DNA of 64,000 bases from a virus (Duplodnaviria; Caudoviricetes), in IMG/VR virus record IMGVR_UViG_3300021387_001709, positions 64,001 through 128,000 of that record; one strand, given 5' to 3'. The notes below the pieces were generated by a model that saw only the letters and a program-made list of their open reading frames with translations, was not told the DNA's origin and did no database searches. Positions 36,265 to 54,910 of this stretch are shown here, piece after piece. The translations under genes were made by a program, and so were the position numbers. How positions within the stretch are numbered: position 1 is the first letter of the stretch; each line of letters opens with the position of its first letter.

Positions 36265-37539
36265 TTAAAAATTAATAATAGGTTTTTCGATATCTGTATC
36301 TATAGTATTTAATTTCATAACGTCAATATAACTATATATGTCAAACGGTTTATCAATACCGTGTTTCTTTCTTATCTCATTTATATACTCCTGAAGTTGC
36401 TCTGGGGTATTGTTTTTTGCTCCATACTTATGATGAAACGAACCATATATAAACATATTATGATATTTTTTATCCAATATAATGGTGTTCCACTCTTCAA
36501 ACATATATTCTGGATATGTTGACATGGGATATATATGATGTAATTCCAGATTATCTGTAACTGTATTGGTAATATAACAAACGGATCCATATTTTTTAAT
36601 AATTGAATCTCTCCAATGTTTATACGGTTTACTACTTCTAATCCTTTGATTTAGTGTTTTTTCTCCGCCTTTCCAGTTGGGATTATTTTCTCCGGTATAA
36701 TGCCAGCCACCGCCACAGGTTTTGGCGTCACCTTTTCGTAAAACACTACCTCTGATACTTACATCGTTTCCACATGAACAATGACAAAACCAATACGGTA
36801 CTCCGTCAACGGATTTATCAAAAGCCGTTACGGTTAATTCCCCATATTGTTTTCCTACTAAGTCAATAAGACCAATCCCTAATCTGGCACACTCAGGACA
36901 TTCAAAATGTTTAATTTTAGACTGAGCAATTTCTCTTAAGTAATCATCATGTTTCCCATTATTGCATTTCCAATACACTTTTTTATTTGAATTACAATAA
37001 TAATCATATGGAGTCATTTCATTTTTATTTGACCAATAAAGAATGCTGTCTGGGTATATGACTCCTAAAGATTTTTCTTTTTTTACAGCGGCATCGTTCG
37101 GAATCCATTTACCTTTTGGCCTAAAAAATCTTTCTGGAACAATTGTTTTTACTCCACCATTATCCAAATCATTTATTTTAATATCAATCTTAGACCTAAA
37201 GCTAATATCCCATGGGGTGAAACCATTGTCTTCGTTCCAAATTTTTTCTAAATAATCAATGCCATATTTATCTATAACATGTTGGGCAAAACTAGAACAT
37301 GCTCTACATGCCAGTTCTTGATGTTCTCCATTTAACCTCCCAAGTGGATATATTTTATGTGATTCACTTTCATGAATACCCCTTGGACATTTTAACCAAA
37401 CATCTTTTTCAGAACCCATTGATAATTCGCCTGGACTAAAAGCATTCTTTTCATAATCCCACCTATTTAATAAATCGAATCTAGAATGATCGTTACACCA
37501 TTTATCAAAATAATATTTTTCTTTCTTTCCCATTTTCAT
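36265..37539 (-). CDS. Free-standing HNH endonuclease with repeated zinc-ribbon DNA-binding domains
   Basis: Repeated W...KN...P......S.K.V.W.C...H modules, NPNWKGG motif, and C-terminal LELHHIYP...N...H. Confidence 0.8.
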   Translation of the reverse strand: MKMGKKEKYYFDKWCNDHSRFDLLNRWDYEKNAFSPGELSMGSEKDVWLKCPRGIHESESHKIYPLGRLNGEHQELACRACSSFAQHVIDKYGIDYLEKIWNEDNGFTPWDISFRSKIDIKINDLDNGGVKTIVPERFFRPKGKWIPNDAAVKKEKSLGVIYPDSILYWSNKNEMTPYDYYCNSNKKVYWKCNNGKHDDYLREIAQSKIKHFECPECARLGIGLIDLVGKQYGELTVTAFDKSVDGVPYWFCHCSCGNDVSIRGSVLRKGDAKTCGGGWHYTGENNPNWKGGEKTLNQRIRSSKPYKHWRDSIIKKYGSVCYITNTVTDNLELHHIYPMSTYPEYMFEEWNTIILDKKYHNMFIYGSFHHKYGAKNNTPEQLQEYINEIRKKHGIDKPFDIYSYIDVMKLNTIDTDIEKPIINF

Positions 37540-42927: not shown

Positions 42928-45201
42928 TCAAGCGTTATCAATAATCACACCAAACAGCTCATCAATAACAACGCCGATTCCCTCGTAGTACCAGATCTCA
43001 GCTTCAATTGTACGATCCTGAAGAGAGCCGTCCATTCCACGTTCGAAGTATTCTACGTCGCCCTCATTAACTCTCTTAATCGGTTTGAAAGAGTCATCAA
43101 TCGGAACGATGAAAATCTTCTTATTATCATTAGCGGTAAAGATAGAGGTACGAGTGCCTTCCTCATTTACTCTGTCAAGAACAAGACAATCATAGCCTTC
43201 CCACATTCCAAGCATACCTTTTTCATGGAGTTCCTGTTTCATATCATTACTCCACATTTTGTAATTCACGGTATTCTGAAGTTTCTGCATTGCAACACGA
43301 GTACCTACAAGCATAACATCCTTACCGGTTGTAGCTTTAACTGCCTCAATTTTATCAATGATAGAATCTTTAGTAGCCTCAGTAATTGCAATACTAGCTT
43401 TCATATCAGCCGGAAGATAAGAGTCAAGGCTCATGAATGCAGTATAAAGCGCAGAATAACGATGTTTTTCGATGCTTCTATACATAAGGTCTACCATTTC
43501 GGAGAAATCAACCTTGCCAAGCATAAACATCTCAAAATCAGTATAAACTTTAATTACATACGGATAAGTATCAATCGAGAATCCTTTTCCCGGAAGGACT
43601 TTCTGACGTACACTTTTTTGTTTAACATATATTATTTTTCCAAATTTTTATCATCAAATATAAAATGCCAATGGTATCCTCCGCAGGTATGACGTTCACC
43701 ACGGCAAGCTTTTAGAATTCCTCCGCTTTCCAGTTGTAATTCCTTTGAAGCAGTAGAGGCATTTATATATTCCATATTTAACTCTTCACAGAATACTTTA
43801 GTATAATTTTTATTATAAGGTTCGTAATGTTTCTCTTTTTTCGCATCACTTATTTTCTTTTTTGTCTCCTCTGTATGATGCTTTCCATACATAACATTAT
43901 TCTCACCAAGTATTCTTTCTTTATTTAAAGGATTTTCCCAATAGCGTCTTGTAGTCTCACTCCTTCGTTGTCTCAAATCCCCATTTTCATATGAGCGTTT
44001 AACGGACTCACTCATTTTATTTTTTATTTCATCCGTATAATATGAGGAGCAATTCTACCCACCTGTTTTTTTATTATATCCATACTTTCTGTTTAATGCG
44101 TTATAATATTCAATATAATATATTTCTTTTTCATCAAGTTCATTTGCATCACATTCCTCTATAATATAAAAAATGAAATTATTTTCTCCATATTTATTCC
44201 AAGAATTCTGCAAATGACTATTCCCATGATAGTTTGACTTCAATGCATTTTTATGTTTTCTCCATCTGTCATATATATCATGTGCCTATCCGACATATTT
44301 TTTATGATTAACTATATTTTCTATACAATATATCCCAGATATTATATCTTTCTTCATTATTACCTACCTTTTTTATATTTGGAAAAATAATTTTATTGGG
44401 GTCGCTACTCCCAGTTCGGTTTAAAACCGCTCAAGCTTTCACTTGAGAACAGACTATATCTTTTTCGTTAAATAACGAACACACCATTTCCATTTAAGGG
44501 GTTTTCACCCACCCGCTTGGGCCGTACTCCTATTGTCACATTATATGACCATGGGATAGTCGTTGAACATTCTCTTATTTAGAGCTTTGCTGCTGATTGC
44601 CCATTACCAAAACAACAGGGGATTTAACCTCGTTGTCATACAATTAATTTTTTCTACTTTCGTAACCATCACATTTGTACTTATTCATTACTCTGTTGTG
44701 GTTTAATTGTCTTTGGGGTTTCCCAGCAATTAGATGTGTATTTTAACATACAGCTTACGCTATACGGACACTGTTTTAGCCAATGTCATGATGATTGCCA
44801 GCCCATTTGCTAACCTGAAGAAGAGCAGTATTATTAGCTGTGAAATAATTCATATCACCGCGAGCAATATTAACATCCTCTACATAGTTCATAAAACGAG
44901 CATTCGTAGAATCCCAGCCGGAAACCATCTTGTCAGCAAGGACATTTTCGATTACAGAACAGATCTCAATGCCATGTGCTCTCCAAGCCTGTCTACGCTC
45001 CATACGTTTGGCATTCTTAAAGTCAATACCAAGAATCTTATTAAACTAGTTACGAATAATCTCAGAAGTCTGAGCCTTAGAATATTTTTCATAAACACCA
45101 TTTGTGGCGTCCATCATAAGATCGTTGAACTGAAGCATATTCTCATAGTTATTATCAAATTTTGCAACAACATTATTGCTAAAGCATGTAATATCTTTCA
45201 T
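42928..45201 (-). CDS. Major capsid protein (SPbeta YonB-like), join(44783..45201, 42928..43612), 367 aa
   Basis: Position after scaffold and decoration genes. One TAG in exon 1. Splicing gives WAGNHHDI|VRQKVLPGKGFSIDT. Confidence 0.8.
43613..44782 (-). mobile_element. Group I intron (1170 nt) in the major capsid gene, carrying a homing endonuclease
   Basis: GACAU|UGGCUAAAACAGUGUC P1/P10. P7 elements GTTCAACGACTATC and AAGATATAGTCT. Terminal G. Confidence 0.88.
43632..44357 (-). CDS. Intron-encoded GIY-YIG homing endonuclease with NUMOD3/NUMOD1-like domains, 241 aa in code 15
   Basis: SGIYCIENIVNHKKYVG(TAG=Q)A...RW..H, GYN..GG(TAG=Q), MYGKHHTEETKKKIS, C-terminal CGGYHW. Confidence 0.88.
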
Positions 45202-48095: not shown

Positions 48096-48818
48096 TTATC
48101 TCCTTTTATAATTTATATTTTCAAGTAATAGTTTATATTTATCCGGAAGTTCATTTAGACGATACCAAAAATATCCGTAAGCCTTGTGTGTTTTACTAGT
48201 AATAGTATAGGCTAATTTTAACGTTTTCTATTTAAATTCTGGATTTAAAGAAATAATTATACTCGGTGAATCATATACACCTATTATTTCAGTACAAGCA
48301 TCATTCATCTATATGATGCCACCGTATTTTTGCTTGAACTTAAGCGTACATATCTCACTGCTTGATAACCATTTAATATTATGTTTTAGTAATATTTTTT
48401 TAATCGTTTCGGGTGATACCTAAAAATATTTCGCCGTAAGACCAGCTATATAATTATTCTATATATGGATATTAATAACTTTCTCTTCGTCCAAATTTAA
48501 ATAACTTTTGCCATCTCCGCCGAGAGTCCCATTATATCCCTTACAATCTTTGTATCCTACATATGCACGATATTTTTCAATGTAATATTTTTCTCTATCA
48601 CATAAATACTAACCATTTTCAGCTTCTTCAATTACATCAAAATGAAAATGCTCTACGCCATAACAATTCATCGCGTCATATAAAGGGCGCTTTTCAAATC
48701 TCCGGCGCTTATAATCACTCTAGTGTTCTTTCCATCTATCATAAGGATTATTATCCTCTGTTTTCCCAATATAAACTTTATCATTAATGTCGCAAGTTAT
48801 TTTATAAATCCAACCCAT
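48096..48818 (-). CDS. Free-standing GIY-YIG endonuclease, 240 aa in code 15; missed by the track
   Basis: MGWIYKITCDINDKVYIGKT...RW.EH...GYNGTLGGDG and C-terminal AYGYFW. At least six in-frame TAGs, AGGAGG RBS. Confidence 0.8.
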
Positions 48819-48928
48819 AATTTTACCTCCTAGTGTAATATAACCTAGCTATCATAAACACAGAATAGGAGAGAGCTAGGACATCTCTCCATATAAGGTT
48901 TGCAACTCCTTATATTATTCTGTGTGAG

Positions 48929-49000
48929 CAAGGGCGCCAGGTGCCGTCCCCGGTCCTCGCGGGTTAGAGCCGCGCGCACTAGCTGGTATGCTACGCCCCT
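48929..49000 (-). tRNA. Amber suppressor tRNA (anticodon CUA)
   Basis: Cloverleaf: AGGGGCG/CGCCCTT acceptor, GCAT/GTGC D stem, CGCGG-CTCTAAC-CCGCG anticodon arm, CCGGG/CCTGG T stem, G73. No encoded CCA. Confidence 0.88.
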
Positions 49001-49081
49001 ATAAAACATTAACGCATTACCGCGCTAAATTCATTAAATAAAATAATAGAGCGGGAGCTTAATCCCGCTCTTAATTACCAA

Positions 49082-49489
49082 TTATAAATATTTGTCATAA
49101 AATTCATCATTAACTAAATCAACAACTTTATCAAGAATATCAAGGTTTTTAATAGCATCATTTAATTCTTTATAAAGATATCTATTCGGAACAGGATTAT
49201 GTGCTACATCTCCATAAACACGAAAATCATGTTCTGCACAATCTACAAAAGATTTACACTCAGTTTCATCTATATTATAAAATACTACGCCAACTGTCTC
49301 TTCATATTTCCCAGTAGAATCATTATATTTGCAAATCAAATAATTATCATCCGGATAATCTGTAGACTTAAACCATGATATTATTTCATCACCCGGTTCA
49401 TTATCGCAACTATAAATAACATCATAATCAACGCGATAAACCGCACCACATATACTCAATATATTATTTAGTTTTAGAATTTTATACAT
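49082..49489 (-). CDS. Hypothetical protein
   Basis: Intact ORF with RBS, followed by a hairpin at 49048..49071. Confidence 0.6.
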   Translation of the reverse strand: MYKILKLNNILSICGAVYRVDYDVIYSCDNEPGDEIISWFKSTDYPDDNYLICKYNDSTGKYEETVGVVFYNIDETECKSFVDCAEHDFRVYGDVAHNPVPNRYLYKELNDAIKNLDILDKVVDLVNDEFYDKYL

Positions 49490-49517: not shown

Positions 49518-51098
49518 TTATGCTATTTCAGAACCAGTATTTCTACTTCTTTCAGCACTACCGCTTAAATCATCGTCATCTGATCTAGGTCTTCCGACAG
49601 TATTACTGGAAGTATTATAACTTGATTGTAGTGGCTTCATCATATCCTTAATACCAATAGCATTCTCAAACCTAATCTTGTTGATTGCTTTATACGGTGT
49701 TCCTTCAACAACAGATAAATAATCCAATGCCGGGCCGCCAAGTGTCGCGGAGTCTTTATATCTCTGAATATAATCATCCTCGTTAAACCAGGTTATTCTC
49801 AGTATTTCAAAGATATATCCCTTTGATATATTTTCTGCAATATAAAAATTCAGCCAAGATTCTAACCTATTTACCCAGACCCACACATTTGATTGATCCG
49901 CAAGCTGAGCAAATTTAATAGCCAGATTAGAAGTAGAATTACCGCCGGACACAACTGTTTGTGTTAATCCGCTGTTAGAAAACAGATTATTTATAGATTT
50001 CGCTAACGCATCTGTATCCGACGCATGTGACGTGTCATTAAACGTGATTTTATCGATATCAAATGGAGCAGTAATAACACCGACCAAATCCGGCACTGAC
50101 TGTTCCTCAAGCTGTCGAAAATAATTAACCATCTCCATTGAGATAGCAAAATCATCAACATCCCCGCTATTACCATTGTCCACTAACGGTATCTTATTCA
50201 CAATCAAAGCATAATTCTCAAGTTCTGTTTTAGATTGAAGAATCTGCTACAAATCAAGCAAATCTAATAAATCCGTAAACAGCGGAAGAAAATATGGCAA
50301 TGGGAAAGAGAACTCATCTTCCGGACCAATTAACAAAACACAACATTTTTCGGGAGGTAATCTAAACCATTGATAATCTCGTCCGCCATCCTTATATGAA
50401 CGATATCCGTTAATAAATACTTCATCCCATGTTGCATAACTTCCTTGTCCGTCAACTCCAAGGACAAACTCACTATTGTTGGCTGCATCAAAAAATGCCG
50501 CATTAAAATACACAACCCACTCGCCATACTCATTTTTTCCTACAATCCTACAATACTGAACATCTAACGGCATTAAAAATGTTCTTCCCTATTTATTCTC
50601 GTAAACATACCCAGCATAAAATCCGTCACGGATTGCAAGATATAATGCGGTATACATATCTTTTTTTAGGCTGAATTTATCAAAAGTCTCGAGTACTTTT
50701 TGATAACCTTTAAGTGCTTTATCAACATCTATATCTTCAGACAAATCATTTGCTTGAGTAATTGTATAATAGAACAACGGCATCGCCGCCATATACATAA
50801 TCATTTTTTGATATAACATTGAGTTCCTGACTAAAAATCTCGAAATTTCTCGAAGAGTATCTTGATTGTTAGCCGGAGACTAAACATATGTTTTTACGAG
50901 ATCTTTAGTGTATTGCGTGAAAGTTCTGTTTACAGACCTAGTGGCGTTACGCTGAAGAATTTCTTCCATTTTTGCGAATGTCATTGTCTGCGCACGTTCA
51001 CGCTTATATGAAAAATCCTCCACATCCGTGGGAATTGTAGTTATTTTAGTTTCATTATTTTTGGGGCCGCGGTCAGCGGTTTTCTTTCTTGTTGCCAT
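49518..51098 (-). CDS. Portal protein (YonE-like), 526 aa in code 15
   Basis: Four same-frame fragments joined by TAG, immediately after the terminase. C-terminal PLQSSYN..GRP motif. Confidence 0.8.
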
Positions 51099-51113: not shown

Positions 51114-53171
51114 TTATTTAAATCTGGTTACTTTTTTGGGTTGACGGAATGTAAATTGAGAAAATAGCTATTGTGGATCTTGATTTTTAGGCTTTTTCAA
51201 AATATCACTTCTACGTTCTTGAAGTAAAGCCCATCCAAGCAAAGCGCAAGTATATGCGCGATCATCGTGCATTTTATTTGCCTTTTCCGGTGTTAATTCA
51301 AAAGAATCTTTGCCTGTATCTCTCTTCTTCCTCACCATATTTACCAATTCTTCTTTTAATATATCTATATTAACAAGACCAATTTCATCTCGCCAATCCA
51401 ACTTAATAGTTTTCGTTTTTACCGATTGTAGTTTATTAAGTTCCTCTTTTAACTTTTCTTCAAACTCTTTCCCTACAATCTTTTGTTTCTTTAATTTTTC
51501 AGTTATCTTTTTTGTCTCTTCATCAATCATTTTCTAATCAACATCAAAAACAGTAAGATATCCTTTATGATCGTAATTAGCGGTAAAACTAATTTTATTC
51601 TAATTTAACATTTCTATAAGTGCTTCGTACATCTACGATTTATAAGCACTTGGATTCATCATATGGAGTTTTCCCTAAACCGCGTCCGGAAATCTTTTAA
51701 CGTACTCCTCAGAATATTCCTTATCTATAAAACCTCTGTGTTCAACCCCGGCTTTATCGACCCAGTTTTGCATTAACATATCCGCAATAATTGGACCACC
51801 CCCACCAGAACCGGCATCTATATAAATTCCAAGAATATTATCATAATTATCAGCACCACCATTATAATCAAGAATCATTTGTCTTAAATATTCAACTTGA
51901 TCCGGTGTTTGCATAGGTGATTTTATTTTTTTACCTACGTCTAACAGATTAACTAAATTAACAATTCTCGCTTTATATTCCTTCGACCCATCAGGAAGTG
52001 GAGATTCGTAACGCTCAGCAACTAAAACTACAGAATTATCTCTCATCCTAGCTGGATCATAACAAATCCAAAATTTCCTATTACCGATATCATTACTATG
52101 AACTGGTTTTCTCGTTTCTTCGTTACGAGTAATGACTCCGCGCTTTACAATAGCATCAGCTCCAGCCTCTGTGGTAAATTGACAATAATATTCTCGTCTA
52201 GCCTTTTCGGGATTTGTTCTCATTTCATAATCAACTGTTGAGCGAGATAGAAGAGGAGCAACAAGTTCTCCTCTAATTGTAGGTTTAAATGCCAACTCAC
52301 AATCCATATGAAGAACAACATACTCCGGATTACCCATTATCATATTTTTCGCGAATTCTCTATATAACCTATAGAATGCAGTATCCGTACTACTTGCGGA
52401 ACTAATATATATTTTTTGATATCCAATTCCTTGTGGAAAACATCTCTATCTAATTGGGTCTATAGATTTACCACTAGCGTCCTTACCAGTTTTAAGATTT
52501 TTATTTACAGCAGCAAACGCTCCATAAACGTTCATCAATTCATCAGATAAAAATCCACTTTCATCAAACACAATCGTGCCTCTGTAGCCACGGTGTGCAT
52601 CTATATTAGCATTTAACGTTTGGGAAAAAGAACCATTATACAAAGTATATTTAAAGCCGTCGGAAGAATGGCTAAAACCATCTCCAGACGCATTGCTAAT
52701 GACAATCTCATCCTTAAATATCTTTCCAGTAGAACCTGTAAAGGTATCAATATTATCATTTGCTAATTTTTCAAGAGTAGTGAAAGTATTCTGTGCCTAA
52801 CTACCGGACCCACTAGCAATATATGCCCAATAATTATTGAATAACATCCCCTTAGACATTAACTCCAGATCAATTACTGTCGATTTACCAAAACCTCGCG
52901 TACAAACAAGGAGAGAATTTGGAGTAAACCATGTTCTCTATACGGCGAGCGACTACATATCTAATAACTCAATATTGAAAAAATTATCAATAAATCTAAC
53001 AGGATTACATTGATAATACTTCTGCATTTCTGCAATTGCTAACAAAGACTCAATTTTTCTACTAGACATAGGATAATCAATTGGCTTGACAAATACACCG
53101 TAATCTTTATAAAAGTCCTTGTCATAATCCAAATAGCCAAAATCATAAACTGGAGAAATCAGCGTCTTCAT
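51114..53171 (-). CDS. Terminase large subunit (YonF-like), 685 aa in code 15
   Basis: Walker A CTRGFGKS, Walker B IVFDESG, nuclease YDPAR and HDDRAY. The Q-motif Gln upstream of Walker A is encoded by TAG (ELLDM*SLAV). Confidence 0.9.
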
Positions 53172-54501
53172 TTTCGTCGTCCTCCTCGTTTTCATCATTG
53201 GCAAAAACAGAATATAGATCTCTTAAATTCCTATATTGATTACTAATATCAATTCCTTTTTCTTCTAAATAATCTTTAAGATCAAGATTCTCCTAGAGAA
53301 GTATTCTATTAATCTCTTTATATGAATTACATTCTTCACGAAGTTCTTGGATGGTTTTTCTCATAGTCGCAACCATATCTGACCATTCTGACTCATCAAG
53401 AGCCAATTGCTTCATAAGAGAGGCATCGGCGATTTCTTGTACTTGCTACATACCTCGACAAGTTCCAATATCAAAACCGTTTACTTGCCCATCTCTTAAA
53501 TTTAATTCCTATATCTTTTTAAGTTTTCCGGTCCAAGTGTTTTCGCCTCTGATAGAATGTTTACTGTTCTTTAAAGAAATGCAGCTCTCTTTGGCAAGAT
53601 TATTCACGCTACTCAAAATTTGCGCTTTCATCTATTGAAGGGCTTTGATAGTGGCTATATTCTTTTCAGCATTCCTAAAATCTTGCGATAACTGAGCAAC
53701 CATGTCATCAATATTTGAAGCCTATAAAAAACCACGAACGATGGATATAATAGAAGCAGTTCTCATCATATCATCGTTGCCTTCTTCAGATGAATCTAAA
53801 AAACCTATTAACTACGAATATAAAAACGGCTAGTCGGATAGCTTTTCTTTATCAAAAGGAAGATACCCCAATAACCGCAAAGTGTCATTTTTATTTTTTT
53901 CAAATTGTTCAATAATTTCCTAGTCCTTTGGTAAAGCATTTTCCGCCATATCTTCAAGAGACATTGCGCCACCGGTATAATTGTCAGACTCTCTATAAGT
54001 CATTGTATAATAATTAACCATCTGGATATTTTTGCAATATGAAGTATAAACATTACTTTTGCCTTTCCCAGATGCTCCGTTAGCAGCTTCGAGAAGAGAT
54101 GCTTCCCATACAGTTTCCAACATTGGTTTGTTTAAAAAATACATAGCGTCGTCAACCGTTTGTTTGGTTGGTTGCTATTTTTCTCCATTAACAACTGGCA
54201 GTGCAATTTCTTCCGCACATTGCTTACATCCGTCCGTTAATCCAGATGCTTGTCCGGGAGCAGTAGAAACATAGAATTTATCTTTTGTTTTAACGTGACC
54301 ACAATGCTGACACGTAAAGAATTTACTCCCAACGCCAATCGCTTCGAGTGCTTTTATCTAATCACTAGGTTTAAGCGTATCAAACAATTCGCATAACTAA
54401 TCAATCGTCTTATCTATTTCTTTTAGGTTTGTAGTTTTACCGGCTTCCTTCGGTGAAACCGGCTTTTTCTAACCTTTTTTCACTATTCTGGTTGCAGACA
54501 A
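53143..54501 (-). CDS. Zn-finger protein upstream of the terminase (YonG-like, possible small terminase), 452 aa in code 15
   Basis: GGAGG RBS, TTG start, CQHC...CKQC, many TAGs, overlaps the terminase start. Confidence 0.65.
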
Positions 54502-54625: not shown

Positions 54626-54638
54626 TAAAATAATAAAT

Positions 54639-54702
54639 TTCACCCCAGGAATCGAACCCGAAGCAGAAGAGTAATAGTTACTCTCCCGCGTACCAACATG
54701 AA
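54639..54702 (-). ncRNA. tRNA-like element lacking a D stem, with a 12-bp hairpin capped by CUA
   Basis: Canonical T arm TCGGG-TTCGATT-CCTGG, GG-containing loop, GCGGGAGAGTAA-CTA-TTACTCTTCTGC. Confidence 0.4.
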
Positions 54703-54706
54703 CGAA

Positions 54707-54808
54707 TCAATGCGTTATTAATTTAACAACATTGCAAAATGCAACCGTCATACTCCAACCGCCAAGAACGGCTACAAGGTTGCAAATAATTTTGTCGCGT
54801 AGGCGCAT
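54707..54808 (-). CDS. 33-aa hydrophobic peptide inside the tRNA cluster
   Basis: Perfect AAGGAGGTGA RBS; MRLRDKIICNLVAVLGGWSMTVAFCNVVKLITH. Confidence 0.55.
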   Translation of the reverse strand: MRLRDKIICNLVAVLGGWSMTVAFCNVVKLITH

Positions 54809-54836: not shown

Positions 54837-54910
54837 TAGCGAGGGCCGGCTCTGCCCCGACGATCTCCAGAACATGACTCTGGCGAGATGACTGACTTCT
54901 CTACCTCGCA
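54837..54910 (-). tRNA. tRNA with CAU anticodon (Met or Ile2) and a non-canonical elbow
   Basis: GCGAGG/CCTCGC acceptor with a U1.U72 mismatch, GAGA/TCTC D stem, CCAGA-GTCATGT-TCTGG anticodon arm, GTCGG-GGCAGAG-CCGGC T arm. Confidence 0.7.

Follow-up and report, generated by a model that had tools for sequence, protein, structure and literature searches.

A phage tRNA(CUA) with a variant elbow, the probable amber suppressor of a TAG-recoded genome, belongs to a covarying family of noncanonical tRNAs

The closest described systems are the suppressors of code-15 phages, in which a tRNA with a CUA anticodon accompanies late and structural genes full of TAG codons read as glutamine (Borges et al., bioRxiv 10.1101/2021.08.26.457843; Peters et al. 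2022, PMC9523058), as is the case for the phage described here. A host that uses the standard code and the lack of a phage aminoacyl-tRNA synthetase are further points of likeness. A suppressor could be detected in only 40% of TAG-recoded genomes (Borges et al., bioRxiv 10.1101/2021.08.26.457843), and noncanonical suppressors that go undetected have been suspected (Borges et al., bioRxiv 10.1101/2021.08.26.457843; PMC12386605). The tRNA(CUA) analyzed here would be a concrete example of such a hidden suppressor: whereas the described code-15 suppressors were found by standard tRNA finders, it has neither G18G19 nor U54U55, and neither ARAGORN at default settings nor the Rfam tRNA model sees it. 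In the literature on phage suppressors that we searched, we found no description of an elbow-variant class of this kind.

The window (the whole 64,000-nt stretch of DNA analyzed) comprises positions 64001-128000 of a single 189,811-bp virus contig estimated to be 98% complete; coordinates below refer to the window unless another record is named. Almost all of its genes lie on the minus strand. Approximately 244 in-frame TAG codons fall in minus-strand open reading frames (ORFs) downstream of 54.5 kb, and genes upstream of 55 kb contain none. Reading TAG as a sense codon fuses fragments into ORFs of 3516 aa (67 TAG), 2795 aa (70 TAG), and 1214 aa (19 TAG). The terminase-like protein, which contains 9 TAGs, was aligned with 53 full-length homologues from a library of 1.84 billion proteins. 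The TAG at residue 84 falls in a column occupied by Q in 49/53 homologues and that at residue 136 in a column occupied by Q in 51/53; the columns of the remaining seven are variable or gapped, and W occupies no TAG column of this alignment. From these Q columns and the absence of W, we conclude that TAG is used as Gln, and the two invariant columns bear out the decoding proposed in a preliminary description of this DNA. By terminase, the closest isolate phages are Clostridioides phages, at only 25% identity, which points to a likely Bacillota host. The 2-kb neighborhood of tRNA(CUA) had no DNA match in GenBank phages.

The features of the locus are as follows.
48096..48818, minus strand: GIY-YIG homing endonuclease gene (PHROG 7168/314/5123, E 5e-21; 6 in-frame TAGs), directly downstream of tRNA(CUA)
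48857..48925, minus strand: Y-shaped structured element directly 3′ of tRNA(CUA) (fold z-score −3.82, 0/200 shuffles as stable)
49000..48929, minus strand: elbow-variant tRNA(CUA), 72 nt, with no encoded CCA (CUC comes next)
48967-48965, 48980-48987, and 48942-48948, minus strand: CUA anticodon, D loop, and T loop of tRNA(CUA), respectively
49048..49071, minus strand: intrinsic-terminator-like hairpin (9-bp stem, 6 G-C pairs, U-rich tail)
49082..49489, minus strand: 135-aa ORF with no assigned function, between the portal gene and tRNA(CUA)
49518..51098, minus strand: portal gene (PHROG 2739, E 8e-86; 3 in-frame TAGs), used as synteny anchor
51114..53204, minus strand: terminase-like gene (9 in-frame TAGs)
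54837..54910, minus strand: second elbow-variant tRNA-like gene, anticodon CAU

Reading of the sequence confirmed the tRNA at 48929-49000 as the preliminary description had given it, with a CUA anticodon, the acceptor AGGGGCG/CGCCCUU, A1-U72, and G73. The 7-bp acceptor stem consists of A1-U72, G2.U71, and then five G-C or C-G pairs. U8 and A9 lead into a 4-bp D stem (GCAU/GUGC), G26 follows the D arm, and the 5-bp anticodon stem (CGCGG/CCGCG) carries the loop CUCUAAC with U33, C34 U35 A36, and A37, that is, the loop of an amber suppressor (7 nt, U33, CUA, a purine at 37). A 4-nt variable loop (AGGA) and a 5-bp T stem (CCGGG/CCUGG) complete the cloverleaf. The D loop, ACCAGCUA, has no G18G19, and the T loop, GACGGCA, has no U54-U55, UUC, or A58; the canonical elbow set (G18 G19, U54 U55 C56 ... 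A58) is absent. These altered loops, on which the preliminary description was silent, are the most unusual feature of the molecule. Watson-Crick pairing between the D and T loops (G18-C56, C19-G55) was considered and rejected, being broken by A55. We assume that tRNA(CUA) adopts the L-shaped three-dimensional fold without the usual elbow-locking nucleotides. The fold energy of tRNA(CUA) alone was not better than that of shuffled sequences (z = −0.21).

At default settings, ARAGORN reported only a tRNA-Pro(UGG) in the window and missed tRNA(CUA), which it called only at -ps80, and relaxing the Rfam tRNA model (RF00005) to E ≤ 10 still gave no match there. The reason in both cases is that GG is absent from the D loop and UUC from the T loop; with its own covariance model, R1, tRNA(CUA) scores 83 bits. 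The label given by ARAGORN, tRNA-Pyl, was rejected on the grounds of stem and loop sizes, the lack of PylS, and the Gln found at TAG columns.

Homologues were collected by pattern scans of viral and metagenomic contigs with a filter on cloverleaf geometry; R1 was built from the first eight and then used for searching. The family comprises 13 distinct CUA and 3 UUG (Gln) elbow-variant tRNAs from viral and metagenomic contigs, the UUG members lying at L001:423-493, L157:1501-1572, and L353:996-1066. Its members have a D loop of the form A-N-C-A-G-C-N-A, a T loop of the form G-R-C-R-G-C-A, a 4-nt variable loop, U8, A14, and G10, and the anticodon loop reads CUCUAA(A/C) without exception in the 13 CUA members. 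Many lie inside tRNA arrays and have an encoded CCA. Across the 16 CUA/UUG sequences, 95.8% of cells in the four helices (7/4/5/5 bp) are paired, and 19/21 pairs have changed on both sides. The covariation score for these sequences was 0.888, compared with 0.229 for shuffles (0/500 as high) and 0.12 to 0.18 for slid partners, a large margin for an alignment fitted to the R1 structure, which itself favors a high score. A wider set of 16 elbow-variant and related matches (CUA, UUG, CAU, GUG, and UCC) was 94.2% paired, with 21/21 pairs double-changed. Because the helices covary in 16 distinct homologues, we conclude that the fold of tRNA(CUA) is beyond chance.

The family as a whole is poorly visible to general tools. 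ARAGORN detects 2 of the 13 CUA members, and three elbow-variant family members pass the Rfam gathering score (30 to 42 bits). In 185,579 prokaryote genomes, the family pattern, which is strict, gave 6 matches and 0 cloverleaves. BLAST against 50,697 GenBank phages found no family member and no match for tRNA(CUA); the sole match of the family was weak, to a canonical-elbow mycobacteriophage tRNA via the shared anticodon arm. In Mycobacterium phage Trixie (L429, 6117-6189), a gene labeled "tRNA-Gln (ctc)" has the anticodon CUC, which reads a Glu codon, and its equivalent in phage Kalpine is labeled tRNA-Glu, so that the annotations are inconsistent. Among the carriers of family members, G003 and G004 are clearly TAG recoded and G006 moderately so; the GC-rich carriers G001 and G002 gave no clear sign of TAG recoding by a crude measure of read-through ORF gain.

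Elbow-variant tRNAs with the anticodons CAU, GUG, and UCC are found in large phage tRNA arrays, with canonical tRNAs as neighbors, so that suppressors are not the only tRNAs with the variant elbow. They were located in two of the carriers, at the following positions.
G002 (the record of L031): 495-567 and 2266-2337
G004 (the record of L126): L147:1146-1216

The present genome likewise holds a CAU tRNA-like gene (54837..54910) just upstream of tRNA-Pro, at the early/late boundary, with the anticodon loop GUCAUGU, the T loop GGCAGAG, and U1.U72. Its R1 score is 34.6 bits; it is missed by ARAGORN and Rfam and is kept with compensatory T-stem changes in L005, a relative with 98% aa identity in the portal. 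Between this gene and tRNA-Pro lies a stretch (54636-54732, minus strand) that contains a canonical GGUUCGAUUCC T-arm motif and may represent an unusual or decayed tRNA; ARAGORN calls the stretch only at a relaxed threshold, giving it an anticodon of 4 bases.

The terminator-like hairpin closes the portal/small-ORF unit 48 nt before tRNA(CUA), and a promoter scan found no convincing sigma-70-like promoter directly upstream of the tRNA gene. The 135-aa ORF is absent at this place in L006 and L424. The Y-shaped element on the other side is kept in L005 and L006, its flank being about 90% conserved while the L005 tRNA is swapped, and may be a 3′ processing site, a terminator, or a homing-site junction. 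The late structural block contains three free-standing homing endonuclease genes on the minus strand (36265-37539, 43632-44357, and 48096-48818), one HNH and two GIY-YIG. Both GIY-YIG genes contain TAG and therefore depend on the suppressor.

The occupant of this slot differs among relatives. Between the same flanks, L005 carries a different CUA tRNA (L005:8108-8424, plus strand), in which a group I intron of 231 nt follows CUCU (RF00028 match of 29.7 bits, E 1e-5, below gathering); once joined, its exons form an unusual cloverleaf in which the 8/9 linker has 1 nt, the D loop has 5 nt, and the extra arm is long. In L004 (portal 82% identical), a 92-nt CUA tRNA (L004:2029-2120, plus strand) lies next to tRNA-Pro; its elbow is canonical, its 5′ half resembles tRNA-Gln (U1, G73), and its variable arm measures about 23 nt. 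L424, with 78% nt identity in the portal region, keeps a tRNA(CUA) variant beside the portal; this closest variant differs from tRNA(CUA) by a compensatory change of C6-G67 to U6-A67 and by a T-stem G.U that has become A-U. The predicted amber-suppressor function is conserved while the gene at the slot is exchanged, which fits the neighboring homing endonuclease.

Elsewhere in the genome, ARAGORN found six tRNAs (Pro, Leu, Met, Ser, Gly, and Gln-UUG), none with CUA. Among 92 low-score calls at a relaxed threshold, tRNA(CUA) was the only one with CUA, and a direct scan of the 189.8 kb found four CUA anticodon-type hairpins, with a GC-rich cloverleaf only at tRNA(CUA). Neither the L004-type nor the L005 intron-type CUA tRNA has a homologue in this genome. 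tRNA(CUA) is the only candidate suppressor in this 98%-complete genome. A search of the phage genome found no GlnRS/GluRS, TrpRS/TyrRS, release factor, PylS, or CCA-adding enzyme. A host enzyme must therefore charge tRNA(CUA), in agreement with the reliance on the host put forward in the preliminary description.

Taken together, the covarying cloverleaf, the CUA anticodon, the use of TAG as Gln in proteins, the lack of a second candidate, and the lack of a phage synthetase or release factor gene make it probable that tRNA(CUA) is the phage's own amber suppressor, a new structural variant transcribed with the late block and putatively charged by host GlnRS. In E. coli, GlnRS identity comprises a weak or open 1:72 pair, G2, G3-C70, G10, G73, U35, and A37. 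By these E. coli rules tRNA(CUA) carries the set (a weak A1-U72, G2(.U71), G3-C70, G10, G73, U35, and A37), with two departures: the partner of G2 is U71 rather than C71, and C occupies position 38. Of the 16 family members, 12 have an unpaired 1:72 and 3 more a weak one; the pair is A-U only in tRNA(CUA) and L424 and G-U or G-C in the remaining two. G10 occurs in 15/16 members and G73 in 13/16. The mostly unpaired 1:72 and the usual G73 fit GlnRS. We propose that tRNA(CUA) would be transcribed within the late, TAG-rich gene block, matured by host RNase P and the host CCA enzyme, and charged by host GlnRS through the open or weak 1:72, G2, G3-C70, G10, G73, U35, and A37. The Gln-tRNA(CUA) would then compete with RF1 at UAG, so that Gln would be inserted and the late proteins made.

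With respect to origin, the preliminary description had suggested that tRNA(CUA) may be a tRNA-Trp that had undergone the Su7-type change from CCA to CUA, charged by GlnRS via U35 and G73 and perhaps with some Trp misincorporation. The Trp-like acceptor end that it reported holds: the first 10 nt (AGGGGCGUAG) and seven of the final eight of tRNA(CUA) equal those of E. coli trpT, the mismatch being at position 71. Moreover, the known non-anticodon determinants of E. coli TrpRS (A1-U72, G5-C68, A9, and G73) are all present, and placement of tRNA(CUA) as sister to E. coli tRNA-Trp was not rejected by an AU test, which had no power on the 69 columns (p = 0.33). The body, however, shows no Trp-specific similarity outside the acceptor: tRNA(CUA) and E. 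coli tRNA-Trp are identical at 43/67 positions, no higher than for Val, Ile, or Met tRNAs, raw pairwise identity being uninformative as an isotype test. In a maximum-likelihood tree with anticodons masked, tRNA(CUA) falls in a 97/98-supported clade of 13 elbow-variant tRNAs (which shared loops could draw together), apart from all 7 Trp and all 6 canonical Gln tRNAs.

Closer relatives also argue against descent from tRNA-Trp. The subfamily to which tRNA(CUA) itself belongs, with the T loop GACGGCA, the D loop ACCAGCUA, the variable loop AGGA, and G26, includes L416 (from a distant relative of the source phage), L426, and L417, and these three have U1.C72 and UGGGG(G/A) acceptors. UUG paralogues have the same body and even the same acceptor: L001 holds a UUG/CUA tRNA pair with identical D arms, and the acceptor CGGGGAU is common to L353 (UUG) and L124 (CUA). 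A targeted scan for CCA-anticodon elbow variants gave no cloverleaf among the matches listed, and W is absent from the TAG columns. The phage's own canonical tRNA-Gln(UUG) (genome positions 165735-165810; T loop UCCGAAU) has A1-U72 and G73, and these features are therefore not Trp marks here. In G008, a phage about 92 to 97% identical, the slot of this canonical tRNA-Gln(UUG) is occupied precisely by an elbow-variant UUG tRNA. This swapped gene is L157:1501-1572 on the minus strand, equal to G008:62150-62221; the flanks are about 92 to 94% identical, and C33 replaces U33 in the variant.

On the basis of the family anticodons (CUA/UUG), the tree, and the background-level identity, a tRNA-Trp body with one anticodon change is not supported, and we consider a Su7-type origin unlikely. 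An elbow-variant tRNA-Gln is the most likely ancestor of the suppressor, a reading suggested by the Gln-type family members, which carry UUG or CUA. The Su7-like acceptor would then be a lineage-specific variant on a Gln-type theme and not evidence of tRNA-Trp descent. Some Trp mischarging of the tRNA(CUA) lineage is conceivable because the TrpRS acceptor determinants are present; the alignments show Gln usage only.

Gln could also reach the tRNA indirectly, through a nondiscriminating host GluRS and conversion of Glu-tRNA to Gln-tRNA by GatCAB, as in Bacilli that lack GlnRS. The closest isolate relatives infect Bacillota, many of which have no GlnRS, and TAG read as Gln is compatible with either charging path. 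GatCAB, however, needs U1-A72, and tRNA(CUA) has A1-U72 and 12/16 family members no 1:72 pair; C34 and A36 remove the anticodon determinants of GluRS, and the unpaired 1:72 combined with G73 matches the GlnRS pattern. The lack of U1-A72 makes the indirect route less likely than direct charging, and we regard it as improbable. It is very unlikely that tRNA(CUA) is a nonworking gene (a decayed relic, a homing target or landing site, or another structured RNA) and that suppression comes from a host factor or an undetected gene: general tRNA detectors do reject it, its elbow is noncanonical, and it adjoins a GIY-YIG homing endonuclease in a slot that is swapped in relatives, but compensatory changes keep four helices across 16 distinct sequences, the anticodon loop is invariant in 13/13 CUA members, many family members have an encoded CCA and lie in tRNA arrays, no other candidate is available for the hundreds of sense TAGs of this 98%-complete genome, and the L005 slot holds another CUA tRNA, so that slot function is conserved.

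The main interest of the locus is that a conserved, detector-blind class of elbow-variant tRNAs would supply the only suppressor of a heavily recoded phage. R1 and the loop motifs recover relatives, so that the "missing suppressor" question becomes directly searchable. More tentatively, the altered elbow, with CAGC in the D loop, GGCRGCA as the T loop, a variable loop of 4 nt, and an open 1:72, might be a distinct, selected architecture used for CUA, UUG, CAU, GUG, and UCC that works on the ribosome and with GlnRS, escapes host factors that read the elbow, and explains a substantial share of the "missing" suppressors in recoded phages. Such factors, if the idea is true, would include tRNA-directed defense nucleases, modification and quality-control enzymes, and T-box sensing. 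A conserved alternative to the near-universal G18G19/T-Psi-C elbow in tRNAs meant for bacterial ribosomes would be of interest to tRNA structural biology and might offer a natural scaffold for orthogonal suppressor tRNAs.

Among known suppressors, E. coli supE (glnV, tRNA-Gln CUA) resembles tRNA(CUA) in its Gln-type acceptor end (weak 1:72, G2, G3, G10, and G73) and in its CUA anticodon, and it is charged by GlnRS despite A36. The UUG/CUA paralogue pairs of the family mirror a supE-like origin from tRNA-Gln. In contrast to tRNA(CUA), with A1-U72, G2.U71, and a variant elbow, supE has a canonical elbow and U1-A72; in a further difference, a UUG parent needs two anticodon changes to become tRNA(CUA). 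The E. coli Su7/supU suppressor (tRNA-Trp CUA, mainly charged with Gln) shares A1-U72, G73, G5-C68, A9, and the AGGGGCG acceptor, and a Su7-like dual recognition by GlnRS and TrpRS would be expected for tRNA(CUA) on these grounds. Su7, however, is a laboratory mutant with a canonical elbow, whereas the rest of the tRNA(CUA) body is not Trp-like and its relatives carry UUG rather than CCA.

tRNA-Pyl likewise has a CUA anticodon and lacks G18G19 and T-Psi-C, but its anticodon stem has 6 bp, its variable loop 3 nt, its acceptor/D linker 1 nt, and its D loop 5 nt, against 5 bp, 4 nt, 2 nt, and 8 nt in tRNA(CUA), whose phage has no PylS. Mitochondrial and other tRNAs with degenerate D and T loops translate without the canonical elbow nucleotides. 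Those tRNAs are AT-rich and often truncated, whereas the members of the elbow-variant family are full-length, with GC-rich arms and their own loop motifs. Because the arms are full-length and GC-rich and the loop motifs are conserved, comparison of the sequences points to the family elbow as a defined alternative rather than a product of decay.
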